Source: Chiloscyllium plagiosum
Lineage: Eukaryota
DNA: 64,000 nucleotides
Assembly (NCBI RefSeq): GCF_004010195.1
Contig: NC_057758.1
Location: 9,562,850-9,626,849 of the forward strand
Direction of reading: 5' to 3'
Shown: positions 12,517 to 45,757 of the stretch, piece by piece
Position numbering within the stretch: position 1 is the stretch's first letter
Layout of the letters: the number at the start of each line of letters is the position of its first letter
The notes under the pieces: model-generated
The model's database searches: none
What the model saw: only the letters and a program-made list of their open reading frames with translations
Told to the model about the DNA's origin: nothing
Translations under genes and position numbers: made by a program

Positions 12517-13427
12517 TCACTGTTTATGACATTTTGTAATAAGCTTGGAGACATGCTTAAGAGCTTCTTTCAACTGACCTCTGAATTTTGTCTGTGTCAC
12601 TGCATAAATGCACGTATTCGTGTATGAACTTAAAAGTTGTAACATGTACGCACTTTCCTGCAGAATAAATTTTGGGTCATTGGGATTGGAACTGATCGAA
12701 TAGGTATTGCCTGAAATTTGTACAAGTAGAAAATGTACAACGTACGTTGTCCACAACAAGAGGAAACTGCCCGAGATTGTAAAGAGTAAAATGATGGACT
12801 TTCTCCTGCTCTCCATTTCTGTGTCGCCTTTATTAATTTCATTGCTGTGGGATCTGAGTCTCCTTCGGGCTCGATTAGCAACTATAATGTGTTTGACAGT
12901 CAGTCCATTAAACAGCAAAATAAGGAGGAACGGGAGACATGGGGTTTGAATGCTGTCAAAAGTGTCAAACAATCTCCAGGCAACCGATGTGTGATAGGTC
13001 TCTTTTATGTTGCAGTACCAGCCGACGTTATTAATGAAATATAAGGTCTCATAAACGAAGTAAAATGGAATGTTTGTCAAACAGCATAGCACACAGACTA
13101 TTATGATAACTACAGCTGCTACTTTTTCTGTGTAGAACTTATTTTTGTGCTTTTGGTGACAAATGGTTAGGAACCGATCAAAGGTAAAAGCGACAGTCAA
13201 CCAGACAGAGCTGTTTCGAGAAACGTAGGTAAGTAGAATTATCAGGCGACATCCCTGTGTGGTGTTTAGTAAACTAGCTGGAAAACAAATTGCCAGAAGT
13301 CGACTTAAAATCACTGCAATGGAAATAACAAGGAGATCCATTGTCGCCATAGATACAAGGTATCGAATGACACATCCTGAGAGACCACATCTTCCTCGGG
13401 AAAGTATCACTATGGTCACCAGGTTGG
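12517..13427 (-). CDS. Probable G-protein coupled receptor 139-like (GPR139/GPR142 family), coding exon 2 of intact copy 1
   Basis: The 911-nt exon follows a ttacAG acceptor and a long CT tract. It reads (A)NLVTIVILSRGRCGL...DLLV...SVWLTVAFTFDRFLTICH...TPCLPF...RRKSIILLF...NTCIYAVTQTKFR. It has a 7TM pattern, a DRF motif and the TM3/ECL2 cysteines. Spliced to exon 1 it gives 326 aa. Confidence 0.9.
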
Positions 13428-13434
13428 CTGTAAG

Positions 13435-13545
13435 AGACAGAGTGCGAGAGTAAGTGAGTGAGTGTTAGAGTGAGAGAGAGAGAGAGACAGTCAGGCAGAC
13501 ATTCTGAGACATAGAGAGACACAGAAAAATAGACAGATAGAGAAA
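13435..13545 (-). repeat. CT-rich low-complexity polypyrimidine tract at the intron acceptor
   Basis: GA/GACA-rich run on the plus strand next to the splice acceptor; a counterpart lies at 43994-44085. Confidence 0.75.
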
Positions 13546-14987
13546 GTGGGAAAACAACATTGACTGTTTGGCAAATAGATGGCATGGCATTGTGTCAGTT
13601 ATGTTGGATTCAACTAAGAAAATTAATGTTTATATTTTTGAATCCGATGGTTTATTAACAAGAATGTCGATCGCAAATAGTAATTGAACCCACAAGATAA
13701 AATATTTGAGAAAAATTATACTTGGATCTTTCCTATAATATATAAAAGTTAGGAAATTAACTGTTTTTCATAATCAAACAGGCGGAGAAACGATGCTAAA
13801 ATGGTAATAGGAAGGACGTTTGGTCATATCTGAACATGGTAAGTAATGACAAACCACACATGGAGTAAACAATCCTCTTCAGCTCATGATCTGATACTTT
13901 CTCCAAGTTCAAGCCAGAATTGTTTGCATTCACTTACCATTGCATAAAGTTCAATATCATTCGCATCTCATCAGATTCTTAAACAGATGACATTGAATTG
14001 CACTACCAGTGCTAAGTTGCCAATAATCGTGCCTCTCAAGTGCCAGACATTTGCCATTTCCAAAAAGATAGCAGAGAACGTGTTTGAATGTCTCACTTGA
14101 TGAATCCCCAATTCCGCATAAATTCTCCAAGGAAGAAGGCATGCAATGCAATGCTTGCTGGATGTAAACAGTTCCAACACAACCTTGACTGCATTTCAGT
14201 GTAAAGATATAGCTCATTTGACCTCACCATTTCATTGAACATGCACTCCCTCCAACAGTAATAGAAATTAGCCGTTGTCAGTATCATCGACAAGATGCAC
14301 TCCAGAAATTCACAAAGAACCGTGAGACAGAAGCGTCTGAACACATGGCCTCTACCGGAGGAAGAGCAAAGACCGCAGAGTACTAGGAATAGCAGTATAT
14401 CGTCACCTTCAAGCTTCTCATCACCCTGACTTGGAAAGGTATTGCCCGTCCTTCCGTGCAGCAGTGTCACTATCCTGTAACTACTTGCTTCACTACATTT
14501 CGGTATAGTTGCATAAAATGAACTGCAGTGGATCAAAACGACAACTTAACCAACACCTTCTGAAGTCAATCTAGAGTTGGACAATACGTGCTGAACCAGC
14601 CAATTGTGCACATATTCCAGGAAAGTATAGAAAACAACGTTTAGAAAAGAGAAATGGTCATAAAGGAATCAAGTAAATTACATAAAATGGACATGAGTGC
14701 TAAGACGTCTGTAATAAATATCTGAGGGGAAGCAGGTTGTGAATGTTAAAAAAAACCTCGAAACTAGAACTAAAACTATTGATTGGCATTGTTAACTGTC
14801 TCGGTGATTATTTAACTTTTGATTTGATTGCACAAACAACAAAAAAACGTATTGTGTTATTACGATGTGTCACTGATTAAATTAGAAGTTTATGGACCCG
14901 CTCAGAATATAATAAATGCACAGCTATGGTCAAAACATTTCATTAAGCATCAGTTTTCCAAGAATATATTGTATTACCATAATTTAC

Positions 14988-15057
14988 CTGGAACTCCGAA
15001 AGCTGCAAGGGCAAAGTAATAAAGTAGAAATATCAACGCTTTTGCAGGAGCATGCAT
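14988..15057 (-). CDS. GPR139-like copy 1, coding exon 1 (MHAPAKALIFLLYYFALAAFGVP+G)
   Basis: ATG at 15057, 70 nt long, ending CCAG|gtaaat. The phase-1 donor joins the acceptor at 13427 in frame (G|CC = Ala, giving GVPANL of TM1). The same layout recurs at 45688-45757. Confidence 0.88.
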
Positions 15058-15117
15058 CGTTAACAAGAATAATGAATTGGTACCCTCTGACTTCTTTAGT
15101 AAGGATTGTGATGTACC

Positions 15118-15125
15118 TATTTATA
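15118..15125 (-). promoter_or_regulatory. TATA box candidate of GPR139-like copy 1
   Basis: TATAAATA on the minus strand about 60 nt upstream of the ATG. The paralogous position (45818-45825) reads CATAAATA. Confidence 0.5.
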
Positions 15126-15406
15126 CATGATGTACACCACTAGAGACACAATAACTTTGAATCATTGTTTGTATCTGGTGCAGTCTTTATTAAAAATAAA
15201 CAAACTAATGCAGCCATTTTCACGCTAATAGCAACTAATGTAATATACCGTGATCCAACAGAAAAAATGGCCAATATGCGTGAAAAAGTACTTTCAGTGA
15301 TTAAACAGGAAACTTAAACAGGAAATTATGCGATGTCAATAAATTGGAACCTTTGAAATTTTTATGACCATAGGTAATAGTAACAGAAGACAAATTCCAG
15401 AATGAA

Positions 15407-15621
15407 GGTTGAAACTTTATTGCTGGAACAGCACAGCAGGTCAGGCAGCATCCAGGGAACAGGAGATTCGACGTTTCGGGCACAGGCCCTTCTTCAGGAA
15501 GGGCCTGTGCCCGAAACGTCGAATCTCCTGTTCCCTGGATGCTGCCTGACCTGCTGTGCTGTTCCAGCAATAAAGTTTCAACTTTGATCTCCAGCATCTG
15601 CAGACCTCACTTTCTCCTCGA
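15407..15621 (+). mobile_element. Fold-back Penelope-derived insertion with hammerhead core
   Basis: Perfect 85-bp inverted arms (15408-15492 and 15498-15582) plus a 3' tail. TSD aaattccagaatgaa at 15392-15406 and 15622-15636. Confidence 0.85.
15470..15497 (-). ncRNA. Minimal type-I hammerhead ribozyme core (Penelope-type)
   Basis: CUGAAGA-A-GGGC(CUGU)GCCC-GAAAC-GUC; helix I is disrupted by the inversion junction. Confidence 0.55.
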
Positions 15622-15997
15622 AAATTCCAGAATGAATCCTAGTTTGATAGATCAAATGTTTAACTTTGAATTTGGTTACTGTGTTAGTTTTTAAATAAAT
15701 GCAAACGAGACTTCGGGGCGTCCTAAAACGGGCAGGCAGACAGACAGAGGCAATTGACCACATTGGCCAGAATGACATTGGTATGAAGACCTGCAACAAA
15801 AATTCCGGTAGTTACGTTTGAAAAGCCAGAACTCTCGGGTAATAATCTCAGGATTACTCTCCGAACTACGTGCAAATGAGGGTAGGAACTGAGACAAAGT
15901 ATATTGAATACCTTATAATGTGGTGGCATGTGTGTGTGGTATGGGGCTGTCTTAAGGAATGAGGATGATTGTGATGTATTCCAGAGACGGTGGGACC

Positions 15998-17490
15998 TAG
16001 AATGACAGAGGCATGGAAACAGATCCTTCCGTCCAACTCATCCATGCCAAACAGATATTCTAAATTAATGTTGTCCCATTTGCCAGCACTTGGTCCACAT
16101 CCCTCTTAACTCTTTCGATTCAGGCACCTATCCAGATGCATTTTAAATGCTGTCATTGTATCAGCCGCCACCATTTCGTCTGGAAGCTCATTCCATACAC
16201 ACAGCAACGTTTGCATCAAAAGGTTGACCCTTGGGTCCTTTTCAAACAGAACATTGAACATGGAACAGTCCATGGAATAGGCCATTCGGTCCTCGATGTT
16301 ACGCCAACCTGCGCAACCAGTGTGAAGCCATATGTTTATCCAATGATCATTTAAATGCCCTTAAATTGTGCGAGTCTGCTACTGTCGCAGGCCCCTTACT
16401 ACTCTCTGAGTAAATAAAATAGCTCTAACATCTATCCCATATTTATCACCTCTAAATTAAAAGCTATGTCCCTTCGTATTCGCCATCACCATCTGAGGGA
16501 AAAGGGTGTCAATGTCCGAACTATTTGACCCTCTGATTGTCTTGTATGTCTCGATTAAATCCCCCTCAACCTTATTTGCTCTAAAGAAAACAGCTTCAGA
16601 TCCCTCAGCCATTTCCTCGGAAGACCTTCCCTCCATAACAGGCAACATCTTCGTAAATCTCCTTCCAAAGCTTCCACATCCTTCCTATAATGCGGTGACT
16701 AGAACTATACATTATATTTCAAGTGCGGCCAGACTAGAACTTTTGTACAATTGCAGTACGATCTGGTAGCTCCGAAATTCAATCCCTCAGCCAATAAAAG
16801 CTGAACACCCTCTAAATCTGTGTGGTAATCTATGTACATAGACATCGACGCCTCTGTGCACATCTGCATTGCCAAGAATCTTACCATTAACCCAGCTCTC
16901 TTTATTCCTATGATGCCTTCCAAAGTGTATCACCTTACACAATTCCGCTTAATATTTCCCCTCTCACACTAAACCTGTGTCCTCTGTATCTGAGCTCTCC
17001 AAAACCACCCAAAAGACGATGTCTATTTACAATATCCATGCCCCTTATGATGTTAAAAACCTCTATAAGGACACGTCTCAGCCTCCGAAACGTCGAGAAA
17101 AAACAGTACGGGCCCTTTCAGCCTCTCCCTGTAGCTGAAACCCTCCAACCCTGGCAGCATCCTTGTAAATCTTTTCTGAACCCTTTCACGTTTCACAACA
17201 TCCTTCTGATAGGAGGGACACCCGAACTGTACACAAAAGTAGTCTAACCAATGTCCTGTACAAGCGCAACACAACCTTCCAACTCCTGTGCATGAACAAT
17301 AAAAGATAGCATACTAAATGCCTTCTGCATTATCCAATCGAGCTGAAACTTTTCTTTCAAGGAATTCAGAACGTGCACTCTAAGTTGTCTTTGTTCAGCA
17401 ACACTCCTCAGGACCTTACTATTAAGTTTATATGTCCTGCCCTGATTTGTGTTTCCAAAATGTGGCATTTCACAATTATGTAATTTAAAC
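15998..17490 (-). mobile_element. Nested CR1 3' portions (outer copy split by an inner copy at about 16245-16950)
   Basis: Two CR1 3' tails and ORF pieces such as YQKDVVKRERVQKRFTRMLPGL. Confidence 0.75.
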
Positions 17491-18377
17491 TGCACCTTTA
17501 CATGTAAGACTTGCTGCACGTAAGTTAGATGGGCATGAAAATCCTGGGAGGGAAGTTTGATACTTGTACTGGTAGTGGTAAAATTACAGTGGTGGGGAGG
17601 ATTTGGCCAGAGCCAGAGCAGCAGTTCAGTAAATATGGCCAGCATTACTTGTTCAAGAGCATATTGAAGGAAGATCCCATTGAATGATTTTGCTGGGAGT
17701 CAATGTCATCAAAGTTTCAGCGAGGATCATTGTGGGAATAGTGACCATAATTCCATAAGTTTTTGGATTCTTGTGGAGAAGGACAAGACGACTTCAGATG
17801 AAATTATTGAATTAGGAGCAAGTCTAAGTATAATTGAATGAGACAAGAATCAGATTATGTAGGTTGAGAATGGCTGCTTGAGAGTAAATCTGGGAGTCTT
17901 TCACGGACCAACTGCTTAGAGCGCTCTACAGGCATGTTCCTGTGAAAACGGAGGACAGGAATGGCAGGAATCGGGAAAATTGGATGTCAGGTTTTCGAAT
18001 TAGTGAAAAAAAGCATACCTAGTATCTGGGCAACCAAAATAAAAGGACCAGGTTTTGAAGAATAGAGCAAAACTAAAAAGGAAGTCAAGCCGAGAGGTAG
18101 GAGAGCAAAAAAGTTCGATGAAATATCCTTGGCCAACAGTTTTCAGGGGATTCCCAAGGCATTTCACATATATATGTAATGTGTAGGAGCAAGAGAGAAG
18201 CTAGGGGAAGACTAAACCCACTCATGAATAAAGTTAAGAGGTTATGTGCAGAACCACAAAAAATGGGTGAGATCCTTAATGACTACTTTGCATCGGTGTT
18301 CTCCAAAGAGATGGACATGAGGAATATTAAGTTTCGGAAAAAATGTGTGAATGCTCCCAGGCAGTTCAACATATTCA

Positions 18378-18580
18378 AGGAGATAGTGAGGACTGCAGAT
18401 GCTGGGAAGTCAGCCTTGATAAAAATGTGGAAGTGGAATAAATACAGCAGGTCAAGCAGCATCAGAGAAGCAGATGAGTCGACGTTCTGTCAAGATACTG
18501 CATCAGGTCTGGGAGGGGAAAGCGGGCTCAGAAATAAATAGAGCACGTGGTGTGGGGATGGGGGAAAATTAGGAGGAATG
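18378..18580 (-). mobile_element. Decayed Penelope pLTR fragment
   Basis: agtgaggactgcagatgctgg..cagcaggtcaagcagcatc..tcgacgtt; same family as the fold-back inserts. Confidence 0.65.
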
Positions 18581-18583
18581 GCG

Positions 18584-18865
18584 GTAGAAAATGTGCAATA
18601 TATGTCAGCCAAAACAGGACGAAACTGCCTGAGATGGCAATATCTAAAACAATGGAGTTCCTGATGCTCTTCAGTTCTGTGTCACCATTATTAATTTCAT
18701 TGCTGTGTCATCGGATTCTCCTGCGAGATTCTGCGGCAAACATAATGTGTCTAACAGTCACTTCATTAAGCAGCAAAACAACGAAGAACTGGAGACATGG
18801 GGTTTGAAAGTGGCCAAAAAGATAAAGCAATCTTCATGCAACTGATTTCTAAAAGATTTCTTTTA
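18584..18865 (-). pseudogene. GPR139-like fragment (ECL2-TM5-ICL3-TM6), decayed
   Basis: Minus strand reads ..SVA*RLLYLFGHFQTPCLQFFVVLLLNEVTVRHIMFAAESRRRIR*HSNEINNGDTELKSIRNSIVLDIAISGSFVLFWLTYIAHFL. It aligns to copy 1 at 12727-13005 and has several stops. Confidence 0.85.
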
Positions 18866-18867
18866 AC

Positions 18868-19316
18868 AGGTTCTCGGTTTGCTCGCTGAGCTGGTGGCTA
18901 AGTTTTAGAAGAGTCGTCACCATTCTCGGCAATATCATCAGTGAGCCACCAATGAAGGGTTGGTGTTCTCCCTCGCTTGCTATTTGTGTGTCTTGGTTTG
19001 TTGTGGTAGTTGACATCATTTCCTGTTTTGTTTCAAAAAGGTAGATAAATGGCTACAAGCTCTATATGTTTGTTAAAGGATCTCTAGTTAGAATGCCAGG
19101 CTTGTAGGAATATCCGGGCATGTCTTTGTTTTGTCTGTCCCAGGATGAATGTATTCTCCCAGTCAAACCAATATCCGTCTTCGTCCATGTGTGTGGATAC
19201 CTGTGGCACTTGCTCATGTTTTGTTGGCTGGTTGTTGCTCATGTATCCTGGTGGCTAGTGCCCAGCCCGTTTTTCCAAAGTAGTTTTTCTTGCAGTCCTT
19301 GCAGGGTATTTTCGTG
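18868..19316 (-). mobile_element. Penelope-like element 3' end (GIY-YIG endonuclease remnant)
   Basis: KIPCKDCKKNYFGKTGWALATRIHE followed by a pLTR-like tail (ccagctcagcgagcaaacc). Confidence 0.8.
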
Positions 19317-22199
19317 TAGACAATAGACAATAGACAATAGACAATAGGTGCAGGAGTAGGCCATTCTGCCCTTCGAGCCTGCACCACCATTCAATATGAT
19401 CATGGCTGATCATCCTCAATCAATATCCTGTTCCTGCCTTACCTCCATAACCCTTGATTCCACTATCCTTGACAGCTCAATCCAACTCTTTCTTAAACGA
19501 ATCCAGAGACTGGGCCTCCACTGCCTTCTGTGGCAGAGCATTCCCCACACCCACCACTCTCTGGGTGAAGGCGTTTCTCCTCGTCTCTGTCCTAAATAGC
19601 CTACCCCTTATTTTTAAGCTGTGTCCTCTGGTACGGGACTCACCCATCAGCGGAGACATATTTTCTGCCTCCAGAGTGTCCAATTCTTTAATAATCTTAT
19701 ACGTCTCAATCAGATCCCCTCTCAGCCTTCTAAACTCAAGCGTTTCCAAGCCCAGTCGCTCCAATCTTTCAACATAAAATAGTCCCACCATTCCAGGAAT
19801 TGACCTCGTGAACCTACGCTGCACTCCCTCAATAGCCAGAATGTCTTTCCTCAAATTTGGAGACCAGAACTGCCCAAAATATTCCAGGTGTGGTCTCACC
19901 ATGGCCCTGTACAGCTGCAGAAGAACCTCTTTGCTTCTAAACTCAATCCCTCTTGTTAGGAAGGCCAGCATACTATTATCTTTCTTCACTTCCTGCTGTA
20001 CCTGCATGCTTGCCTTCATTGACTGGTGTACAAGAACACCCAGATCTCTTTGTACTACCCCTTTATCTAACTTGACTCCATTTAAGTAGTAATCTGCCTT
20101 CCTGTTCTTGCTACCAAAGTGGATAACCATACATTTATCCACATTAAACTGCATCTGCCATGCATCTGTCCACTCACCTAACCTGTCCAGGTCACCCTGT
20201 AATCTCCTAACATCCTCCTCACATTTCACTCTGCCACCAAGCTTTGCATCATCAGCAACTTTGCTAATGTTACTATTAATGCCATCTTCTATATCAGTAA
20301 TATATATTGTAAAAAGCTGCGATCCCAGCACTGATCCCTGCAGTACCCCACTGGTCATCGCCTGCCATTCCGAAAGGGAGCCATTCATCACTACTCATTG
20401 TTTCCTGTCAGCCAACCAATTTTCAATCCAAGTCAGTACTTTGCCCCCAATACCATGTGCTCTAATTTTGCTCACTAACCTCCTATGTGGGACTTTATCA
20501 AGTGCTGTCTGAAAGTCCAGGTACACTACATCCACTGGATCTCCCTTGTCCATCTTCAGAGTTACATCCTCAAAACATTCCAGAAGATTAGTTAAGCATG
20601 ATTTCCCCTTTATAAATCCATGCTGACTCTGACCTATTCTGTTATTGCTATCCAGATGTGTCGTAATTTCATCCTTTATAATTGACTCCAGTATCTTTCC
20701 CACCATTGAGTTTAGACTAACTGGTCTAGAATTTCCTGCTTTCTCTCTCGCTCCTTTCTTAAAGAGTGATACAACATTCGCCACTCTCCAATCCACAGGA
20801 ACTGATCCTGAATCTATCGAACTCTGGAAAATAATCACCAACACATCCACAATTTCTCGAGCCACCTCCTTCAGTACCGTGGGATGTAGACCATCAGGCC
20901 CCGGGGACTTATCAGCCTTCAGACCTAACAGTCTCTCCAACACCAATTCCTGGCAAATATAAATTCCCTTCAGTTCAGGTCCTTCAGCCACTGTTACCTC
21001 TGGGAGATTGCTTGTGTCTTCCCCAGTGAACACAGATCTGAAGTACCAATTCAACTCTTCTGCTATTTTTTTGTTCCCCGAAATATATTCCCCTGTTTCT
21101 GTCTTCAAGGGCCCAATTTTAGTCTTAACCATTTTTTTCTGCCTTTCACATACCTAAAAAAGCTTTTATTATCCTCCTTTATATTTTTGGCCATTTTACC
21201 TTTGTGTCTCATGTTTTCTCTCTGCGTATTTCCTACTTAGTAATCCTCTGTTGTTCTTTAAAAGCTTCCCAGTCCTCCGTTTTCCCACTCATCTTTGCTT
21301 TGTTATACTTTTTTACTTTTGACATTATATATTTCTTAACTTCCCTCGTCAGCCACGGCCACCTGCCTCCTCCTAGGATCTTTCTTCCTTTTTGGAATGA
21401 ACTGATCCTGCATCTTCTGCATTACACCCAGAAATATTTGTTATTGTTCCTCCATTGTCATCCCTGCTAAGGTATTGCACCATTGAAGTTTGGCTAGCTC
21501 CTCCCTCATAGCTCCATAGTTCTCTTTATTCAACTGAAATATTGTCACTACCTGTACCCTCTCCCTTTCAAATTGCAGATTGAAACTTATTGTATTGTGG
21601 TGACTACCTCCTTCACTTCGAGGTCCCTGATCAATTCTAGTTCGTTGCACAATACCAGATCCAGAATTGCCTTCTCCCTGTTAGGCTCCAGCACCAGCTG
21701 TTCTAAGAATCCATCTCAGAGGCACTCCACAAAGTCTCTTTCTTGAGGTCCAATACCATCCTGATTCTCCCAGTCTACCTGCATGTTGAAACGCCCCTGA
21801 ACAACTGTAGTAACATCTTTGCGACAGGCCGATTTCTGCTCTGTATTCAACATTTACCTTACATCCATACTACTGTTTGGGGGCCTGTAGATAACTCCCA
21901 AGAGGGTCTTTCTACCCTTAGAATTTCTCAGCTCTATCCATACAGACTCTACATCCCCTGATTCTTTGTCCACCCGCACAAGGGACTGAATATCATCCCT
22001 TACCAACATGGCCACCCCACCCCCTCTGCCCGTCTGTCTGTCCTTACAATAGCACGTATAGCCTTGAATATTCATTTCCCAGGCCCTGTCCACTTGAAGC
22101 CATGTCTCAGTTATCTCCACAATATCGTAGCTGCCAATTTCCAAAAGAGCCTCAAGCTCATCCATCTTATTTCTAATACTTCGTACATTCATATATAAT
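19317..22199 (-). mobile_element. Young CR1 LINE with near-complete ORF2 (EN+RT) and few lesions
   Basis: LYMNVRSIRNK..ITETWL (EN domain). ORFs 20395..21132 and 19477..20391 are in frame across one stop. Motifs QHGFIKGKSCLTNL, GVLQGSVLG and VADD, with a (ctattgt)n tail. Confidence 0.95.
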
Positions 22200-22365
22200 G
22201 TTTGTGAGAAGATTTGTAGCTCGGGTGCTCGTTGCTGTGGTTCTGTTCGCCGAGCTGGAAGTTTTTGTTGCAAACATTTCGTCCCCTGTCTAGGTGACAT
22301 CCTCAGTGCTTGGGAACCTCCCGTGAAGCGCTTCTGTGGTGTTTCCTCCGGCATTTATAGTGGCA
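22200..22365 (-). mobile_element. Penelope pLTR 3' end with hammerhead motif
   Basis: gca-CTGAGGA-TGTCACCTAGACAGGGGAC-GAAA-TGTT-tgc followed by gagctacaaatcttctcacaaac. Confidence 0.8.
22269..22309 (-). ncRNA. Minimal hammerhead ribozyme, near intact
   Basis: Helix I GCA/UGC, CUGAGGA core, helix II GUC.CCU/AGG.GAC, GAAA and a GUU cleavage triplet. Helix III has C>U relative to GAAACGUU. Confidence 0.6.
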
Positions 22366-27594: not shown

Positions 27595-28435
27595 ATCAAT
27601 GCTTTCCTTTATTAGTCAGTATATTGAGGATAGGAGTTGGGAGCTGAAAATGTGTTGCTGGAAAAGCGCAGCAGGTCAGGCAGCATCCAGGGAACAGGAG
27701 AATCGACGTTTCGGGCTTATGCCTGAAATGTCGATTCTCCTGTTCCCTGGATGCTGCCTGACCTGCTGCGCTTTTCCAGCAACACATTTTCAGCTCTGAT
27801 CTCCAGCATCTGCAGACCTCACTTTCTCCACAGGAGTTGGGAGATCATGTTGCGGCTGTAAAGGACATTGGTTAGGCAACTGTTGGAATATTGTGTGCAA
27901 TTTTGGTGTCCTTCCTAATGGAGAGATGCTGTGAAACTTCAAAGAGTTCCGAAACATTTACAATGATGTTGCCAGGATTGGAGGATTTGAGCTACAGGGA
28001 GAAGCTGGACAGGCTGGGGATGTTTTACCTGGAGCGTCGGAGGCTGAGGGTCACCTTATAGAGGTTTACAAAATTATTATGAGAGGCATGGGTAGACTAA
28101 ATAGACAAAGTATTTTCCCTGGGGTGGGAGGGTCCAGATCTAGAGGGCATATGTTTAGAGGTGAGTGGGGAAAGATATAAAAGAGACCTAAGGGGCAACT
28201 ATTTCACGCAGAGGATGGTACGTGTATGGAATGAGTTGCCAAAGAAAATGGTGGAGGCGGGGACAATTGCAACATTTGAAAGGCATTTGGATGGGTAGAT
28301 GAATAGGAAGGGTTTAGATGGATATGGGCTGGGTGCTGGTAGGTGGTATTAGATTGAGTTAGGATATCTGGGCTGCCATGCACGCATTGGGGTAAAGGGT
28401 CTGTTTCTATGCTGTACATCTTTATGACTCTATGA
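27595..28435 (+). mobile_element. CR1 3' portion (host of a fold-back insertion)
   Basis: Same subfamily as 8975-9944, with a tatgactc tail. Confidence 0.85.
27644..27831 (+). mobile_element. Fold-back Penelope-derived insertion
   Basis: About 75-bp inverted arms centred on gggcttatgcc. TSD aggagttgggag at 27632-27643 and 27832-27843. Confidence 0.85.
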
Positions 28436-28459
28436 CTGCAGTCCAACACCGGCACCTCC

Positions 28460-28760
28460 AAATCATGCAGTGTTTAAAGCTGAAAATATAACACATGAAG
28501 GGAATTGACATCTGGGTAATACATTCTGACCCAGACAACGGTGCCCATATCCATTAAGGTACACAAACCAAAGTCTAGAAATGAAAAAATAGTCATAAAT
28601 GAATCAAGTAAAATACATAAATGGACATGAGTGTTAACACGTCTCTAATAAATATCTGAGAAAACAAGATTGTGACTTGTTGATTGTCATTATTCTCTGT
28701 ATTGGAGAGTCAGCTAACTTTCCATTTGAACGCATGAACAATAAAAACAAGTTATTTAAA
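28460..28760 (-). other. Orphan remnant of the GPR139-like intron 1
   Basis: gaatcaagta..atggacatgagtg..taataaatatctgag..cagctaactt matches 14660-14850 and 45370-45530. Confidence 0.7.
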
Positions 28761-29424: not shown

Positions 29425-31545
29425 TAGAACATAGAACATAGAACAGTACAGCACAGAAGAGGCCCTTCAGCCCACGATGTTGTGCCAACCATTGATCCTC
29501 ATGGAAGGTAAACCTAATGTACAAACCCTCAAATTTCTGTGACCATATGCATGTCCAGCAGTCTCTTAAATAGCCACAATGACCTCTCTTCCACAACTGC
29601 TGCTGGCAATGCATTCCATGCTCTCACAACTCTCTGCATAAAGAACCCGCCTCTGACATCCCCTCTATACTTTCCGCCAAACAGCTTAAAACTATGACCC
29701 CTCGTGTTAACAATTACTGCCCTGGAAAAAAGTTTCTGGCTATCAACTCTATCTATGCCTCTCATTATCTTGTACACTTAAATTAGGTCCCCTCTCTTCC
29801 TTCTTTTTTCCAATGAAAAAAGTCCGAGCTCAGTCAACCTCTCTTCGTAAGATAAGCCCTCCAGTCCAGGCAGCATCCTGGTAAACCTCCTCTGAACCCT
29901 CTCCAAAGCATCCACATCTTTCCTATAATAGGGCGACCAGAACTGGAAAAAGCATTCCAAGTGCGGTCTAACCAAAGTTTTATAGAGCTGCAATAAGATC
30001 TCACGGCTCTTAAAATCAATCCCCCTGTTAGTGAAAGCCAAAACATATGCTTTCTTAACAACCCTGTCCACTTGGGTGGCAATTTTAAGCATCTATGCAC
30101 CTGCACCCCAAGATCCCTCTGTTCCTCCACACTGCCAAGAATCCTATCCTTAATCCTGTACTCAGCTTTCAAACTCGACCTTCCAAAATGCATCACTTCG
30201 CATTTATCCAGGTTTACCTCCATCTTCCACCTCTCAGCTCATCTCTGCATCCTGTCAATGCCACGCTGCAGCCTACAACAGCCCTCTATACTGTCAACGA
30301 TACCTTCAACCTTTGTGTCATCTGAAAACTTGCTGCCCCATCCTTCAATCTCCTCATCCAACTCATTAATGAAAATTACAAAGAGTAGAGGCCCAGGAAC
30401 AAAGCCCTGTGGAACACCACTCGCCACTGACTTCCGGGCAGAATATTTTCCTTCTACTACCACTCGCTGTCTTCTGTCGACCAGCCAATTCTGTATCCAG
30501 ATATCTAAACTTCCCTGTATCCCATTCCTCCTGACTTTCTGAACGAGTCTACCATGGGGACCCTCATCAAATGCCTTACTGCAATCCATATACACAACAT
30601 CCACCGCTCGACCCTCATCAACTTGTCTAGTAACATCCTCAAATAACTCAATAAAATTTGTGAGGCATGACCTGCCCCCCACAAAGCCGTGCTGACTGCC
30701 TTTAATCAAGCCATACTCTTCCAGATTGTCATAAAGCCTATAACTCAGAATCCTTTCTAACACCTTGCAGATGACAGATGTGAGACTGACTGGTCTGTAA
30801 TTGCCAGGGATTTCCCTATTTCCTTTCTTGAAGAGAGGAATTACATTTGCCTCTCTCCAGTCCTCAGGTATGACTCTGGTGGAGAGTGAGGATGTAAAGA
30901 TCTTCGCAAGCGGCGAAGCAATCACATTTCTCGCTTCCCAAAGCAGCCGAGGACAAATCTGGTCTGGCCCTGGCGACTTGTCAATCTTAATGTTTGTCAA
31001 AATTTTCAACATATGAGCTTCCTCAATCTCTATCCGTTCCAGCATGCTTACCTGCTCTTCAATGGTTTCATTCACTACAAGGTCCTTTTCTTTAGCAAAG
31101 ACAGAAGCAAAAAACTCATTTAGGGCTTCCCCACCTCCTCAGACGCGATACACAAGTGACCTATGCTATCCCTGATCGGCCCTACTCTTTCTTTGATCAT
31201 TCTCTTATTCCTCAAATACGTGTAAAATGCCTTTGGATTCTCCCTAATCCTTCCTGCCAAGCCTTTTTCGTGCCCCCTCCTGGCTCTCCTCAGACCATTT
31301 TTGAGCTCCTTCCTCGCTCGCCTGTAATCCTGTAGAGCTGAGCAAGACCCTTGCTTCCTCCACCTTACGTAAGCTGCCTTATTTCTTTTGATGAGAAGCT
31401 CCTCCGCTCTCATCATCCAAGGTTCCTTTATCTTGCCCCTTCTTGCCTGTCTCAAAGGAACACATTTGTGCATCACTCGCAACAACTGTTCCTTAAACAG
31501 TCTCTACATGTCTATAGTGCCTTTTCCATGGAACAATTGCTCCTA
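29425..31545 (-). mobile_element. Young CR1 LINE, 5'-truncated RT region
   Basis: ORFs 31120..31485, 30239..31075 (YRPVSLTS, QHGF, GVPQG, FSDDTK), 29778..30092 and 29529..29777, with a (ttctatg)n tail. Confidence 0.95.
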
Positions 31546-36119: not shown

Positions 36120-36510
36120 AATGCCACCAGGTTATAGTCCAACAGATTTATTTGGGAGCACTAGCTTTTGCAGGCAGCTCCTTCATCAGGTAGCTGTGGA
36201 GCAGGACAATAAGTCCCAGAACGTACAGCAAATTATTACAGTGACATGCAACTGAAATGATACATTGAACAAACATAGATTGACTTTAAGTCTTTCATCT
36301 TTTGGAATGATTTCAGGTTGTAGTTCATTAATATGTATATCCCAGAACTTCTTTTAAGTCACAATCTCGAGATAAATTATGTTTTTTTTTTAAAAAAGGT
36401 GACATCTCAGCTCAAAAAATGCATTAAATTTTTGAAGTCAGAGTCTATCCGTATCCCAATCTTGAGTCAAACTGGGTCTATTTTCAAAGTAGAATTTATA
36501 AATGTTACAT
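36120..36510 (-). mobile_element. Penelope pLTR-type fragment (second family)
   Basis: caccaggttatagtccaacag..cactagcttt..ctccttcatcagg carries a degenerate CUGAUGA..GAAAGCUA hammerhead on the minus strand. Related pieces at 28435-28465 and 61405-61503. Confidence 0.6.
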
Positions 36511-37309
36511 TATTAGAATTTACTGTGTAAAGGAAATGATCTGTCTTTCACGTAATTCAACATAGCGTGCATCAGACATATTAACCGTAAAGAAAGAAGT
36601 AACCCTGTCGAAAAAATAAATCATTTTGTATTACGCCAAAGGAAGTGCCTTGCAAGGATGTCAGAAAAAAAATCCTTAAATTGAAAACAATTCAAAACGC
36701 GTCGTGATGAACAAGTATTGGATATAGGAAGACAGAATATGAAAATAGAACATCGAGACTTACCAAGTCAGGCCATCAGACATTTTGCAAGGATAAATTA
36801 AGAGGCTAAAACTAATTAATCCATATTCGTTTGAACGGCACGGTGGCTCAGTGGTTGGCACTGCTACTTCGCAGCATCAGGGACCCGCCTTTGATTCCAG
36901 CCTTGGGTGACTGCCTTTGACGAGCATGTATAATCTCTTTGTGTCTGCGTGGGACTCCTCCGGCTGTTGCTTTTCCCTTCCACAGTCAATACATAATGCT
37001 GTAGATTACGCAAACTGGCCAGGCTACATTGCCCATAATGTTCAAGGATGTGTCGGCTAGGTGAGATAGACATTGGAAATGTAGGGATAGTGTTGGTCTG
37101 GATGGAATGCCCGTTGGACGTGATGGGCCGAATTGTCTGCTTCCACCGTGTAGGGATTCTTTGAAATCTGTCTCCAGCAGCACTATCCAGTGACCATAAA
37201 GAAATACGAAGTCGAATTACAGGAAAATCTAAGGTATTACTGTGGACTGGCTACAATTATTCGATCTGATTTTTTTGAAGCAGCGCACGTGACTTTCATA
37301 AAATATATA

Positions 37310-39058
37310 ACAACAAAGAACAAAGAACATTACAACAAAGGAGCATGCCCTTCAGCCCTCCAAACCCACGCCAATCCAGATCCTCAGTCTAAACCTGCCA
37401 CCTATTTTCTAAGGATCTGTATCCCTTTGCTCCATACCCATTCATGTATCTGTCTAGATACATCTTAAATGGCGCTATCTTTTCCGTCCCTACCACCTCT
37501 GCTTGCAACCCATTCTCGCCACCCACCACCCTCTGCGTGAAGAAATTTCCATATGTATCTGCAGTAAACTTTTCTCCTCTCACTTTGAACTCGTGATCCC
37601 CTAGTAATTGAATGCTCCACTCTGGGGAAAAAAGGTTTCTTGATATCCACCATGTCTCCACCTCTCAGGATCCCCCTCAACTTTCTTCTTTCCAATGACA
37701 ATAATCCTTATTTACTCCAACTCCCCTCATTGCTAGCACCCTCTAAACCAGGTAATATCTTGGCGAATCTCCTCTCCATCCTCTCCAAAACATCTGCGTC
37801 CGTTTGGTAATGTGGCAACCAGAACTGTATGAAGTATTCTAAATGTGGCTGAACCAAAGTCTTACATGACCTGGCAACTCTTGTATTCAAAACCCTGTCC
37901 GAGGAAAGAAAGGATGCCATATGCCTTTTTGACCACTCTACTGACCTGTGTTGACCTGAACACCCAGATCACTCTGTGTATGAATTTTCCCCAGGGCATT
38001 TCCACTTAATGTATCATTCACTCTTCAATTGGATCTTCCAAAATGCATCACCTGGCATTTGCCCGGATTGAACTCCATCTGCCACTTTTCTGCTCAACTC
38101 TCTATCTCTATTTTACTGTATTCCCTAACAGTCCCCATTCACTATTGGCTACTCTACCAATCTTAGCCTCATCTGTAAATTTTCTAATATGTAATCTACA
38201 CCTTCTTCTTTTATATATCAGAAAGAACAGTAGTCCCAGCACGGATCCCTGCAGACCTCCACTGGTCACAGGTCTGCATTTTGCGAAGCACATTTCCTCT
38301 ACTAACCTCTATCTCCTGTTGCCCAACCAGTTCTCTATCCATCTAGCTAGAACACCCTGGACTCCATGTAATTTCAGCCTCTTCATCAGCCTGTCATGGG
38401 AACTTTGTCAAACACCTTACTAAAGTATATGTACATGACATCTACATCCCTTCCTTCATCAAACAACTTTGTCACTTCGTCACAGAATTCTATTAGGTTT
38501 GCAAGTCATGAGCTTCTCTGCACAAAACCATGCTGCTTGTCACTGATAAGCCATTTTTCTTCCAAATTGGTATATATTCTATCCCTCAGTATTGTCTCTG
38601 GTAGCTTCCTTACGACAGACGTCAGTGTTACAGCTCTGTAATTATCTGGATTATCCCTGCTATACGTCTTAAACAAGGGAAAACCATCTATAATGCTTCA
38701 GTCCTCTGGGGTCTCACCCCGTATTCAAGGATGCTGCAAATATTTCTGTTAAAGCTCAGGGTATTTCCTCTCTCGTTTTCCTGATCAATCTGAGGTAGAT
38801 CCTATCCGGACCTGGGGACTTGTCCACCTTAATGCCTTTTGGAATACTCAACACTTTCTCCTTCCTTAAGTCAACATAGACCAATCAAAGATCTATCCCT
38901 AACCTCAACATGTGCTGTGTGCCTCTGCTCGGTGAATACCGATGCAAAGTACTCATTAAGAATCTCACCCATTTTATCTGACTCAAAGCATATATTTCCT
39001 CCTTTTTCCTTGAGTGAGCCAATCTTTTCCCTAGTTACCCTCTTGCTCCTTATATATG
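37310..39058 (-). mobile_element. CR1 LINE, decayed RT region
   Basis: PVTSGGLQGSVLGLL, KTLVQPHLEY and FFTQRVV pieces, with a (ttctttg)n-like tail. Confidence 0.85.
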
Positions 39059-39568
39059 AAAATAATTATGATGAGTTAGTTAAATTATATATAACTAACC
39101 ACATGACTCAATGAGTCTTTTTCAAGAAGAAATCTATTCACGTTATCAAGTCTGGAACGCAAATGACTCGCATTCTAAGTGTTGCAATTCTTCATTAAGC
39201 GCCGTTTGAATTACCCAGGAACTACGACATGAATCAAAATGGAATGAGAAAAAGTTTCAAATAGGTCATTTATATCTTTTCTAAAAAAATGTGGATAGCT
39301 AGTAAATGGCGTCTTGTTTAGGAACACTCACGCAACAGGACTAATTCAAACCCGTAAAGAATTTGGGAGCTGCACGAAATATGGAACAAAAGAAAGTGAA
39401 GAAAAAAATGCAATATATTAAAGAAGAAACTGGAAGATCTATTGATGGTGGAAATCAGAAACAACAATGGAAAGTGTTGGAAAGACTCAACAGGTCTGGC
39501 AGCACCTATTGAGAGAAATTAGGTTTAACATTTCCGGCTCACTAGCCATTCTAAAAACCTGATGTTGC

Positions 39569-40380
39569 TGTTGCAAATTCGGATGAGTGGATGGTAACTT
39601 TAAGAGAGAAGTGTCTTGCCTAAGCCGGGAGATTGTGACAGCGCATGCGTCTGTTATTAGCTGACGTTTGCACAGAGTGCCGAGTATAGATACTATGTAA
39701 CAGTCAGCTTCAGTTGTTTTTGGATGTTAAGGCACCGGGTTTGAACTTTACCAATTAACTTAAAGCATGCCCAGAATATCAAAAGCCGATTGGATTTAAC
39801 TTTTATTGCATTAAATACATGGGACAAATAAGAGGGGACGGGTCTTGGGGCTTCAACAAGGAAATACATTTTGAAAATTAGTCACAGACAACTGCCCATC
39901 GAATCGAAGAGCGGTTGTCATCTGAAAGGGGCTCTCAAAATAAATCTCTGAGAAGTCGTCATCTACCAGAGATACCAAGAAATGTTTTACAAAGACAATC
40001 GCTGGAAAGATTGTGAAGACGGTCCAGGGAGAAGACGGTACAATTGGAATGAAACAGCAGATTCGGATGACGGGAAGGAAGGCAGCCTAAGAGACTGTAT
40101 GGACATTGCGAGACGAAGTTAATAAATGTGTTCTTGGAGCAGCATTTTATTACAGTTGGCGTCAGATGGTATTGAGTAAGGAAAAAGGGAGTTTGGATTT
40201 GGTAATACCTTTTCTTTCGTGTCGACAGTTAGAGTTGTAAAAATAATTAGTTTCCTTTAAACGGAGGAAATCAGGGGTTTTCTTTCACTCACTCACATTT
40301 CGCAGTTTATGAGGCGAGGTAAGCTTTTCTGGTTGTTTTCGATTTAATGAGCAGTGGGGTTCGATTTTCACGTCGCAATA
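39569..40380. mobile_element. Solo LTR
   Basis: TGTTGC...GCAATA termini, 5-bp gttgc/gtagc flanks, and an empty site gatggtagctc in the paralogous block at about 25631. Confidence 0.65.
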
Positions 40381-42274
40381 GTAGCTAAGGAAATCACTGC
40401 GCAGAAGATAGGGAAGTGGGAAAGGGTATAGGAGTAAACAATAGGTGGCAAGATAAAGCTAGGGAGTCTGTAAAATAGTTGGACAGACAAGGAAGTTAAT
40501 AACTATCAAACCCCCCCTTCCCCATGAAACTGTCCAGCAGCTAATGGGGACTATTAGTGGCTAACAATGGGTTGCGCATTAATGTCGACTATGTAATAAA
40601 AAGGCGTGGTGTGTCGGGGTGGAGGGAAACCGAGTGAAGGTTTTCAAGCCCGAAAATTGTTGCACTCGATTTTGAGACCAAAAGGCTGGATAGAGCTCCA
40701 AGAATAAGACGAGGTACTGTTATTCTAACTGGTATTGAACTTCTCTGAAACACTGCATTAAGCTTGTCACAGAGATGTTAACCAGGGAACAATGTGGTGT
40801 GTTCAATTGCTAGGCCACGGGAAACTCAGGGATTTTGTTTCGTGCACAGAATGTTCGTGTTCCTCGAAGTAGTGACCTTGATTCTTTAATAAAAACAAAC
40901 AACTTTTGGAGTGATACAGCTTTGCTATGTTCGTGCTGCACTAATTTTGTGAGCTGTATCACAGTCAAAATGTAAGCCACTGTTTCAATGAAGCATGGTT
41001 ATTTCACATTTACACTTGCAAAGTGATTTCTGTTCTAGTTGGTGCTGAACAGTTGATCATTTTATTTAGATTCCTTTGTCAAGTATGGTCAAGTGTAGAA
41101 GTACAGAAGAACAGTGAATGATATATAATGTTGCCACATATGACCCCATCTGACGTACAAAGGTACCTTGGCACAAGAAACCTTTAGCCTCAATGTAATA
41201 ACAGAAACAAGAGTTAAAAGGTGAAGTTTTACTTCAAACAATATAGAAATCGGTAGTCATTTCCAATAAGGTTTCTCGCAGTTTAAACTACGTTAAGAAA
41301 GGCATACTTTAGCTGTTCATCAGTCATTGATGAGTCCTGTGTTTATCCAGCTGTGGTGCCTGTTCTTGACTCAACCACCATTGATACTTCCTCTCCGGTC
41401 ATGAATATCTGTTGAAGGGTTTATGCCCAAAACGTCGATTCTCCTGCTCCTTGGGTGCTGCCTGAGCTGCTGTGCTTTTGCAGCCTCACAACCTTCAAAT
41501 CTGATCTCCAGCATCGAGAGCCGCCTCAAGACCAGGCTGAGGTCCGCTGCAAAGAGGCCAGACAGAGAGCCGTGGAAACATCAAAGGCGGGGAAAAAACG
41601 AAAAAAAAAGGGAATGCAGAGAAGGAGACGAAAAGATGGGAGGAGCTCCCTTTCCAGCGTCCGACCCCGTCGTTTTTAAATGAGACTCCGTCACATTGTG
41701 GCAACCATCCACAACTTGGTGAAGGGACGATCGTTGATAAGAGCTAAATATGATTGTTCTCATCACACTATACTGAGGATCGGCTGTTTTGATATTTGAG
41801 ACTGAGTTGTTTAATCTCCAGCAACTATATTTATCTGATGTATTTTTCTACTCCCCAGCCTCTTCCCCAACTCCAAACCTCTGCAACCAAAATTGGACAA
41901 ATGGATTGTTGCAGTCTACTGCAGTCCATGAAGTGTAAATGGCACATCTGAACTGAGATCAAATACAGTGTAATACAAACAATTCTGTGTTTTGCCCTAA
42001 TATCCGTAAAGAATAAAATATGCTGAGAGGAGGTTTTCAGTGTATTCGATGCAATACCTCACTTCATGGCATGAAAACAACGAAGGTTTCTACTTCTGCT
42101 GGCCAAAGGTTGACAGTGCAGCAAAGTGAAATATGAATAATCATTTAATGACATTAATGGATCAGATAAAATACACATTTTTATTGTTTTTCTGATTGTG
42201 TCAAAAACGTAAGACATGAATAATCTTACATGGCACAATTGATCAATGCTTACTCGGGAAAACAGTAAGATGTG

Positions 42275-42477
42275 AAAATGTGTTGCTGGAAAAGCGCAGC
42301 AGGTCAGGCAGCATCCAAGGAACAGGAGAATCGACGTTTCGGGCATGAGCCCTTCTTCAGGCTTATACCCGAAACGTCGATTCTCCTGTTCCTTGGATGC
42401 TGCCTGACCTGCTGCGCTTTTCCAGCAACACATTTTCAGCTCTGATCTCCAGCATCTGCAGTCCTCACTTTCTCCTC
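42275..42477 (+). mobile_element. Fold-back Penelope-derived insertion with hammerhead core
   Basis: About 70-bp inverted arms; the minus strand reads CTGAAGAAGGGCTCATGCCCGAAACGTC. TSD gaaaacagtaagatgtg at 42258-42274 and 42478-42494. Confidence 0.85.
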
Positions 42478-43076
42478 GAAAACAGTAAGATGTGTCAATT
42501 TCTGGAATTTTTTTTTTAATTTCTTTTCCGAGAGGATGTTTACGACTGATAGCTATATGAACAGATGCTTCACAGGTAAACATGAAGTGAAATCTGGACC
42601 TTTTCTCCCATATTTCAGAGATAAGAAGCCCCTTTACGTCAAAATACAGTCTTAACTGGCGCTATGTTTGTTTCTTTCTCTCAAGCTTAGCATAAGAGGC
42701 AATCGTTGTGTGCATACTTGCGGAATTTAAATACAAAAAAATCGGCTTATTGTTTGTCATGATTTTAACAGAGGCTATGGGTATCCTCCTTTCCAGATTT
42801 TACACATACATCAATCAAATCCATTTCAAAAGGAAATCTTCTTATGGTAAGCCTTTGTGACTGGCGGAAGAGGCCAAATCTTGAGAAAAAAATTCCTTCA
42901 CAAGTGGCTGGCACGAATTTATAAAGCGGTGTTGTGGGTTGATATGTCTGTCATTGTGAATTAACAAGCCAAGGAATCATGATGATGCATATGTCAGAAT
43001 GCATGAGCTACATATTCATAGTGCTGTGTGCTGGTTTAGTGTAGTGTTAAAGTCACAATAAGTTATTCAGGTGGAC

Positions 43077-43987
43077 TCAGTATTTATGACATTTCATAAT
43101 AAACGTGCAGAAGTAATTGAAAGCGTGTTTCAACTCACCGCTGAATTTTGTCTGTGTCACTGCATAAAGACACATATTAATGCATGAACTTAAGAATTGT
43201 AGTATATACCTGCTTTCTTGCAGAATAAATTTAGGGTCTTTGGGATTGGAACCTATCGAATAGCTTTCACCTGAAATTTGTGCAAGTAGAAAATGTATAA
43301 GGTTTGTCAGCCACAAGAGAAGGAAACTGCTTGAGATGACAAAGAGCAAAACGATGGACTTTCTCCTGCTCTCCATTTCCGTGTCATGATCATTATTTTC
43401 ATTGTTGTGAGATCGGAGTTTCCTGCAAACTCTATTGGCAACTATAATGTGTCTGACAGTCAGTGCATTAAACAGCAAAATAAGGACGAACGGGAGACAT
43501 GGGGTTTGGATGCTTTCTAACGTTTCAAGAAATCTTTGAACAACAGATGTGTAAATGATCTCTTTTATGTTGCAGTACCAGCCTTTACTATCAATGATGT
43601 ATAAGGGTTCGCATATAAAATAAAACGGAATGATTATCAAACAGCACAGCAAGCAAAGTATTCCTATAACAACAAATGCTATTTTTTCTGTGTAGTATTT
43701 CCTTTCCTGCTCCTGGTTACAGATGGTTAAGAAACGATGAAAAGTGAAAGCAATAGTTAACCAGACAGAGCAGTTTCGGGAAACGTAGACCAGAATAATT
43801 ATCAGACGACATCACTGTGTGGTGTTTAGTAAACTAACTGGAAAGTAAATTGCCAGCAGCCGACATAAAATCACTGCATCGATAAGAACAAGGAGATCAG
43901 TTGCCGGCATCGATACAAGGTACCGAGTGACACATCTTGAAAGACCACATCTTCCTCTGCAGAGTATCACTATCGTCACTAGATTAG
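43077..43987 (-). pseudogene. GPR139-like copy 2, exon 2 with premature stop
   Basis: Same 911-nt length and frame as copy 1, with a ttacAG acceptor at 43988-43989. TGA at 43814-43812 replaces GGA (Gly82), and DRF has become HRF. ORFs 43812..44108 and 43077..43652 are in the same frame. Confidence 0.88.
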
Positions 43988-45687
43988 CTGTAATAGACAG
44001 AGTCTGAAAGAAAGTGAGTGTGAGTGGGGGAGAGAGAGACAGACAGAAAATCAGAGACAGAGACATCGACAGACAGAGAGATACAGGACGCGGTAAAAAA
44101 AACAACATTGTTAGTTGGGTGAAAAGATAACATGAAATTTGTGCCAGTTAATTTGAATTCGACAAAGAAAATTATTCTTTTACTCATATATTTCAAACAG
44201 CTATTTAACAAGAATATCTTTACAAATAATAATTGAATCCAGCATGTAAAATATTAGAGAAACGTTGTAGTTAGATATTTCCGTTGAGATATAACTGTAT
44301 AGAAGTGTATTGATTTCAGAACTAAATAGACGAAGTAACGATGTTGAAACAGTAGCAGAAAACATGTTGAGTCATATCTGAACATGGTTATCAATGACAA
44401 TAGACATACACCAAGAAGCAATCCTGTTCAAATAATTCATCCACGTCCTTTTCTCCAAGTTAAAGCCGGAATTTGGGGCATATACGTATGATTGCACAAA
44501 GGTCAATATCATCCACAGATCATCAGATTCTGAAACAGATTGCATTTAGAGTCATAGAGTCATGCAGGATGGAAACAGACTCTTCAGTCCAACGTTCATG
44601 CCGACCAGATATCCCAACCCAATCTAGTCCCACCTGCCAGTACCTGGCCCATTTCTCTCCAAACCCTTCGCATTCATATGTCCATCTAAATGCCTCTTAA
44701 ATGTTACCATTTTACCAGCCTCCACCACTTCCTCTGGCAGATCATTCCATACACGTACCACGCTCTGTGTGAAAGTAGGAAATTCTCGCTCAACTCAAGT
44801 TCCAGGCATTTGCTATCCCAGAGAAATATAGCAGAGAATGTGTTTGAGTAACTCACTTGATGAATCTCCAATGCAATGCTTGCGGGATGTGTACAGTTCC
44901 AACCATAACCTTGACTGCTTCCAGAAAAAAAACCAAGTAGCTCACTTGACTATCACCATATCAATGAGCATTCACTCCCTCCAGCAGTAATATAAATTAG
45001 TGGTTGTCTGTATTATCTGCAAGATGCATTGTATAATTCACACCGAGACCTGAGACAGAACCCTCTAAACCCATTATGACTACGTAAAAGGGCAAAGACA
45101 ACAGAACCTGCAAAGTGACTTTCAAGATTCCCATCACCCTGATTTACAATGCCTCTTTCAGTGTCGCCATGTCACTACTCTCTAACTAATCCCCAAACTT
45201 TATTTCATTGGGCTTGCATAAATGCACTGCAGTGTTTCAAAACGACAACTTAACCAACATCTTCGGAAGGGAATCTAGGATTTGGTAATGCTTGCGGACC
45301 CAGCCAGCAGTGCACATATTCCACAAGCGTAGACAAAAGCAATATCCAGAAATGAAAAGTGGACATGAATTAATCAAGTGAATTATGTAATGTAAGTATG
45401 AGTGCTAACATGTCTGTAATAAATATCAGAAAGAATGAGGTTGTGAATGTAAAGAAAACCTCGAAACTAGAGTGAATACCATTGCTTGCCATTGTCCACT
45501 GTCACAGAATCAGCTAACTTTGTATTTGAATTCATAATGACCAAACAAAAAAATAATATAATCACAATGCTCCACTGAGCAATTTACAAGTTTTTCGAGC
45601 CGCTGAAAATACAACAAATCCCCAACTTTTCCATGAACACACGTTTAAACATCAGTGTTCCAAGTATATTGTATGATCGTAATTTAC

Positions 45688-45757
45688 CTGGAATTCCAAA
45701 CGCAGCAAGTGCAGAGTAATAAAGTACAAACATCAGCGCTTTTGGAGGAGCATGCAT
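45688..45757 (-). pseudogene. GPR139-like copy 2, exon 1 (MHAPPKALMFVLYYSALAAFGIP+G)
   Basis: ATG at 45757 and a CCAG|gtaaat donor; colinear with copy 1 exon 1 at an offset of 30700. Confidence 0.87.

Follow-up and report, generated by a model that had tools for sequence, protein, structure and literature searches.

We analyzed a 64-kb stretch of Chiloscyllium plagiosum DNA (contig NC_057758.1; hereafter the window) by six-frame translation, tblastn and profile searches. A single G protein-coupled receptor (GPCR) gene is represented in it by two copies of full length and by two remnants, all on the minus strand. One full-length copy, hereafter gene A, is an intact two-exon class A GPCR of 981 nt and 326 aa whose only stop is the terminal one. 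The other, gene B, equals gene A in length, has zero indels and carries a single internal TGA at codon 82 (43814-43812). A previous examination of the letters by themselves (hereafter the sequence-only reading) had described an intact gene, a one-stop paralog, a decayed fragment and an orphan intron on one strand, with about 70% aa identity and no indels between the first two. We confirmed all four elements, and genes A and B are identical at 232/326 aa and 791/981 nt. The features, in which TM denotes a transmembrane helix and E an expect value, are as follows.

12517-13427, minus strand: gene A exon 2 (TM1 to TM7, helix 8 and stop), an open frame matching PF00001 at E 4e-21
13428-14987, minus strand: gene A intron, 1560 nt, GT..AG with a pyrimidine tract
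14988-15057, minus strand: gene A exon 1 (ATG, 23 codons plus 1 nt), encoding the short N-terminus and the beginning of TM1, with a GT donor directly after it
15118-15125, minus strand: candidate TATA-like box, 61-68 nt 5′ of the gene A ATG, with the same spacing as in gene B
15621-15995, minus strand: upstream block common to genes A and B, 76% identical to 46037-46414
18585-18866, minus strand: fragment C, a decayed piece of exon 2 that contains 3 stops and corresponds to aa 164-257 (E 3e-29 by tblastn)
19480-22354, minus strand: broken long interspersed nuclear element (LINE) with endonuclease and reverse transcriptase open reading frame (ORF) pieces, matching Exo_endo_phos and RVT_1
28434-28752, minus strand: intron remnant that aligns with the 5′ portion of both the A and the B intron; nhmmer E 1e-24
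43077-43987, minus strand: gene B exon 2, with a premature TGA at 43814-43812 and HRF for DRF; pseudogene
43988-45687, minus strand: gene B intron of 1700 nt with GT..AG ends, carrying an inserted repeat at about 44548-44774
45688-45757, minus strand: gene B exon 1
45818-45825, minus strand: candidate TATA-like box of gene B, its first base unlike that of gene A

Because the introns (1074/1477 aligned bases identical), the spacing of the TATA-like box and the upstream block are all shared, we regard genes A and B as duplicates at the DNA level. The shared upstream block means that the duplicated unit reaches past the gene itself. Fragment C has accumulated 3 stops in 94 codons and has repeats close on both flanks. 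We looked for an exon 1 next to the intron remnant at 28.6 kb, and none survives there. The remnant lies 5′ of fragment C in collinear order, with LINE pieces between the two, so the window may hold three copies and not four. One broken copy is as likely an account of these pieces as two copies, and the separate fragment and orphan intron of the sequence-only reading, both of which are present, may be parts of the same gene. Profile searches over the entire window turned up no additional coding copy, nor was any flanking host gene found there. A candidate extra copy at 8551-8868 was rejected, as it matches (72%) only positions 14604-14292 of the gene A intron, a stretch that looks repetitive by depth and resembles shark LINE sequence; we take it for an old repeat that was copied there independently and not for a gene remnant.

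Gene A matches PF00001 (7tm_1) at 76 bits against a cut-off of 30.5, which places it in class A; Srw also scores above its cut-off, and these were the only two families at E<=0.1. We found no affinity to OR, V1R/ORA, T2R, V2R or TAAR receptors, either as Pfam matches or among the named matches examined. The AlphaFold model has seven long helices plus helix 8 and a beta-hairpin in extracellular loop 2 (ECL2), with a predicted local distance difference test score of 88.6. By sequence, the closest solved relative is human GPR139, a weak match at E 6e-13, and GPR139 is the best PDB match for gene A and for three of its relatives. Foldseek likewise placed GPR139 first for the model (E 3e-9, 23% identity), with a marginal lead over NTSR1 (E 9e-9, similar TM-scores).

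To place the gene in a wider family, we ran a protein search from gene A, in which 2136 of 3642 candidates matched at E<=1e-20. Taxonomy was taken from the best 120 of these 2136 matches (E<1e-98); 118 are named, and these are all elasmobranch and span 18 species. Their usual automatic label is "probable/putative GPR139". Other automatic names in the family include GPR15-like, capa receptor-like, vasopressin V2 receptor-like and tachykinin receptor 86C, so name-based counts would miss part of the family. The gene is not single-copy: there are three or four copies in 64 kb, and 35 of the best 120 matches come from one species, the horn shark Heterodontus francisci, in which a single 59.5-Mb contig carries 25 of the 35. 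A search of a library clustered at 50% gave 98 matches at E<=1e-30, and deep subfamilies, 35-50% identical, have been retained in sharks, in rays and in a chimaera. Gene A's own nearest genes are from Chiloscyllium and Stegostoma (support 100/100), a placement that points to a carpet shark. Unique bins had a summed contig depth of about 14-20 in DNA run X1, whereas positions 13138-13261 in exon 2 reached 1253; this fits many paralogs, though depth itself is no copy number. The window is an ordinary sample of this family.

The closest match outside the chondrichthyans is a salamander protein. A search seeded with it returned 25 of 1675 candidates, comprising 20 amphibian clusters, one sturgeon and four elasmobranch sequences; the amphibian clusters include caecilian, salamander and frogs, are 66-74% identical to the query and number one per named species. 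This word-limited search found no teleost or amniote copy of the gene. Its pocket is nearly invariant in all three amphibian orders and the sturgeon. A second GPR139-like subtype, seeded from coelacanth, gave 145 matches; the best 120 of these come from sharks, bony fish, amphibians and reptiles, in most cases with a single match for each species, and none is from a mammal or bird. This subtype keeps R6x51 and D7x35 and has no W6x48, and two of its records are mis-named as TMEM183A isoforms, hinting at linkage. Sturgeon and anchovy may have a further GPR139-like subtype, which would bring the number of such subtypes met here from two to three.

In an IQ-TREE phylogeny of 38 sequences and 301 columns, 19 shark-family sequences and four amphibian or sturgeon sequences formed a clade with support 99.9/100, and FastTree recovered the shark and amphibian clade again (0.993); true GPR139 and GPR142 are absent from both trees. 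The second subtype falls outside that clade, and its own shark members lie outside the expansion. The chordate GPR139-like set separates from five invertebrate FMRFamide/Srw-like outgroup sequences at 100/100, and the nearest invertebrate clusters (Atlas neighbors) are FMRFamide-receptor-like, with 20-25% identity to those sampled. The amphibian gene may be either sister to the whole shark family or nested within it (57/82 and 67/55). With a chimaera member and an amphibian/sturgeon relative, the family represents an older gene of jawed vertebrates that expanded in chondrichthyans, so that the elasmobranch family of the sequence-only reading is both broader in its species range and older in its root than had been proposed. 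Judged from these alignments and trees, it belongs to the chordate GPR139-like group, which includes the GPR210-type orphans.

We then asked where the members of this family differ, by comparing 14 GPR139 binding-site positions, listed in parts of PMC5430874, with about 167 other TM positions. Among 77 deep representatives the ratio of pocket entropy to other-TM entropy was 1.77 (1.65-1.88 in 20-sequence subsamples), compared to 0.05 in 20 amphibian orthologs and 0.43 in 120 members of the second subtype. A generic 28-position pocket gave 1.57 for the deep set, 1.33 for the nearest 120, 0.25 for the amphibian set and 0.72 for the second subtype. In the shark sets no class of positions is more conserved than the G-protein face, whose entropy in the deep set is 1.07 versus 2.6 for the pocket. 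Single-copy relatives guard the pocket and the shark family varies it, a chemoreceptor-like signature. Like chemoreceptor repertoires, the family is also a tandem multigene family with pseudogenes; its combination of variable pocket and conserved G-protein face is strong in the deep representatives and weak in the nearest 120 (14-site set). The contrast in pocket diversification bears out the suggested likeness to chemoreceptor or immune receptor families.

For the A-B pair we obtained a synonymous divergence (dS) of 0.42, a nonsynonymous divergence (dN) of 0.17 and a dN/dS of 0.40 (bootstrap 0.30-0.56), an interval below 1 that indicates a mostly purifying history; pairs of A or B with fragment C gave 0.67 and 1.1 over 94 codons. 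We also counted changes at 75 near-invariant columns, defined as at least 95% invariant across the 120 nearest relatives (18 species). The relatives themselves have a median of 1 change and a maximum of 9, and gene B has 12, including D3.49H (HRF, not DRF). Lineage-specific changes were more numerous in B than in A with two of three outgroups (chi2 4.6, 4.7 and 1.6). We conclude from the stop, the excess of conserved-site changes and the lineage-specific changes that gene B is a pseudogene. Its description as a single-stop paralog holds for the one TGA and misses these further lesions.

The proposal that these are amino-acid sensors akin to GPR139 and GPR142, two orphan class A receptors that respond to L-Trp and L-Phe, can be examined residue by residue. 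Parts of PMC5430874 give the GPR139 residues that bind tryptophan and phenylalanine as F109, H187, W241, R244 and N271. At the equivalent positions (F3x33, H5x43, W6x48, R6x51 and N7x38) gene A has Y, D, W, Y and Y, keeping 1/5; the maximum in any of 197 members is 3/5, and R6x51 occurs in 10/191. The near relatives often keep an aromatic residue at 3x33 (Y in 84 and F in 11 of 120), W6x48 (112) and N7x38 (75), R3x36 (91/120) could stand in for the lost arginine, and GPR139 is nearest both among solved structures by sequence and by fold. Set against these points are the residue counts above and the marginal fold lead over peptide receptors such as NTSR1, and we consider aromatic amino-acid sensing in the manner of GPR139/GPR142 quite improbable; the mechanism put forward by the sequence-only reading finds little footing in the pocket.

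The shark family and GPR139/GPR142 share N at 5.58, W6x48, an acidic 7x35 and the lack of P7.50. They differ in that the shark family is multi-copy and only 23% identical to GPR139 in the structural alignment, and most of its members, unlike GPR139, have no P6.50, R6x51 or H5x43. The shark receptors also have C3.25 and the ECL2 hairpin, whereas GPR139 has no cysteine at the aligned position; C3.25 and the ECL2 cysteine are present in 120/120 near relatives, among which D5x40, D5x43 and E7x35 are the majority residues. By identity to GPR139, copy number and pocket, the family is not a GPR139/GPR142 ortholog, GPR142, of which no solved structure came up among the matches, not having been compared directly. 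This agrees with the birth-and-death, multi-copy family that had been proposed in place of a one-to-one ortholog, given the copies, the pseudogenes and matches within the family at E <1e-98 against 6e-13 for GPR139. The motifs DRF, LLWTT and NTCIY are all in gene A as described, yet they do not set it apart, being common to GPR139 or single-copy relatives. P6.50 is also absent from a single-copy relative (T in 107/120 sequences), P7.50 is absent from human GPR139 too (NFFLY in the alignment), and N-termini are short across all three groups (median 24-26 residues before 1.50). As far as these alignments go, the missing prolines and the short N-terminus characterize the wider group and are not diagnostic.

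On balance we lean toward a reading in which the window holds part of a tandem array from an orphan class A GPCR family that expanded in chondrichthyans and serves as a diversified sensor repertoire. The sequences and trees show that an ancestral jawed-vertebrate GPR139-like gene, apparently single copy in amphibians and sturgeon, was amplified in cartilaginous fish by tandem duplication of a cassette comprising the promoter and two exons, with frequent gene death. The entropy contrast shows that the paralogs keep a G-protein-facing surface and vary the ligand pocket; individual members would then most likely recognize different ligands and share one signaling route. Because of the TM3-ECL2 cysteine pair, the ECL2 hairpin and the acidic pocket in the subfamily, the likeliest ligands would be small peptides or amine-bearing molecules rather than free tryptophan or phenylalanine. 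As to where they act, an epithelium of the chemosensory or barrier kind would be likeliest, closely followed by leukocytes. Single-cell run X21, of unspecified tissue, gave three partial reads with 90-95% likeness, none from gene A (2% of the run read), and run X22, also of unspecified tissue, gave no reads (6% of the run read). More specifically, and more tentatively, the family may be an additional vertebrate chemoreceptor family derived from a GPR139-like ancestor, with many dozens or hundreds of genes per cartilaginous-fish genome, active in cells for olfaction or taste or in solitary chemosensory cells. It would then exceed in number the roughly 32 V2Rs to which shark olfaction is currently attributed, and the one ancestral receptor would persist in amphibians.

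Several other explanations fit part of this evidence. FPR, GPR84 and MRGPR are mammalian sensors of the chemoattractant or microbial-product type, and the shark receptors could act similarly in leukocytes, spleen, epigonal organ or gut, since tandem clusters, turnover and variable pockets are just as much what one would expect of immune receptors; with GPR139 as the best solved relative, however, the family has no sequence affinity to chemoattractant receptors. Most catshark OR genes peak outside the nose, including in spleen, according to sections of bioRxiv 10.1101/2024.05.23.595469. We hold such an immune role to be rather unlikely, and what probability it has is a share of that given to the sensor repertoire, not an addition to it. 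Receptors for a co-expanded family of endogenous peptides, in neuroendocrine or reproductive signaling, would suit the FMRFamide-receptor-like invertebrate neighbors and the peptide-receptor architecture, and the invariant amphibian pocket implies a fixed ancestral ligand. Dozens or more pocket variants per genome would nevertheless require a matching expansion of ligands, which makes this a poor candidate.

A different kind of account is largely neutral copy-number drift, in which a recombination-prone cassette in repeat-rich shark genomes yields copies that are mostly redundant or dying. It draws on the state of the window, where one of three or four copies is intact, B and C are dead and gene A has an excess of conserved-site changes. 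It is hard to square with the dN/dS of the A-B pair, with 75 columns held at least 95% invariant over 120 proteins from 18 species, with deep subfamilies lasting through sharks, rays and a chimaera, or with variation that is concentrated at pocket sites and not spread evenly. We therefore judge drift improbable as the main explanation.

A number of observations weigh against a diversified sensor repertoire. The 14-site entropy ratio among the 120 nearest relatives is weak (1.24, p 0.20), pocket positions were assigned by generic numbering and not from model coordinates, and 16 of the 77 deep representatives were checked for taxon, of which 15 are chondrichthyan (including Callorhinchus milii). 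The entropy contrast also sets diverged paralogs against orthologs, and relaxed constraint after duplication could also raise pocket variability. The top-50 olfactory genes of the catshark, in the portion of PMC11979771 that lists them, include no GPCR, a result that is uninformative for sparse receptors but lends no support either. Gene A itself has 5 changes at the 75 near-invariant columns, a count reached by only 5/120 relatives, and going by these changes it may be under relaxed constraint. In DNA run X1, which is close in sequence to the window, a 7-nt insertion appears in gene A exon 1 (15014). The contig that shows it has 14 gap positions, and the net frame is not readable; the insertion could represent either a frameshift allele or a micro-rearrangement that is compensated. 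Gene A may thus itself be decaying.

Compared to the vertebrate chemoreceptors (OR, TAAR, V1R/ORA, V2R, T2R and FPR), the shark family has similar tandem clusters, birth and death, a compact gene and a variable pocket with a conserved intracellular face. It differs in having no OR, V1R, T2R or class C Pfam match and a separate origin, and its sensory role is only putative. The non-mammalian GPR139-like orphans (GPR210A/B, "Orphan 139-like" and "NMOGPR") belong to the same wider group. The non-mammalian subtypes found here were seen once per species with conserved pockets, unlike the shark expansion. The FMRFamide-receptor-like/Srw expansions of invertebrates, described for Lymnaea in part of PMC11589774, are a related group, lineage-expanded and with a suggested chemosensory role, but the shark expansion is independent, at 20-25% identity to the relatives sampled.

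We found no published description of the expansion in the literature searched, which covered few subscription papers. Neither the catshark (PMC11979771) nor the zebra shark (PMC10620051) genome paper has GPR139 in its main text, and it is likewise absent from the supplements of the whale shark paper (PMC8455134) and from the catshark cartilage supplements (PMC13188829). A GPR139 review (PMC12208981) contains no occurrence of shark, cartilag- or lamprey. Sections of PMC6504862 treat GPR210A/B as non-mammalian GPR139-like subtypes and mention no shark genome, and Table 1 of PMC5207463, with the surrounding portion of that paper, has "Orphan 139-like" and "NMOGPR" and mentions no shark expansion. 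This chondrichthyan GPCR expansion with a sensor-like evolutionary signature is apparently undescribed. Cartilaginous fishes are said to have a paucity of GPCRs (excerpts of PMC8455134), and the catshark to have 2 canonical ORs and 32 V2Rs (sections of bioRxiv 10.1101/2024.05.23.595469). If our reading is true, a large family with variable pockets, carried under a wrong "GPR139" label, would alter this GPCR- and OR-poor picture, be its role in smell, in taste or in immunity. The nearly invariant amphibian relative (Xenopus XP_031757816.1) offers an experimental route to the ancestral ligand and tissue and is a candidate for deorphanization.

We note several further features of the window. No AATAAA or ATTAAA lies within 900 nt 3′ of the gene A stop (11600-12516), whereas three such signals follow gene B. 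Of 17 tandem repeats listed by TRF in the window, none has a 26-bp period or forms an array upstream of gene A or B. A palindromic repeat, about 170-190 nt long and self-complementary at up to 96%, occurs in six places (15402-15588, 27633-27829, 42273-42482, 52603-52784, 41414-41515 and 18371-18486) and adjoins genes A and B and fragment C. Direct repeats of about 330 nt (54305-54630 and 57818-58151, 84% identical) flank GC-richer broken ORFs. None of the three ORFs within 54305-58151 has a Pfam match, one shows a degenerate zinc-knuckle-like motif by eye, and the region is probably a decayed LTR (long terminal repeat) element. A second broken LINE copy with reverse transcriptase or endonuclease ORF pieces lies at 29781-31503 on the minus strand, and further reverse transcriptase-like fragments are found at about 9200-9900, 49200-49800 and 51000-51700.

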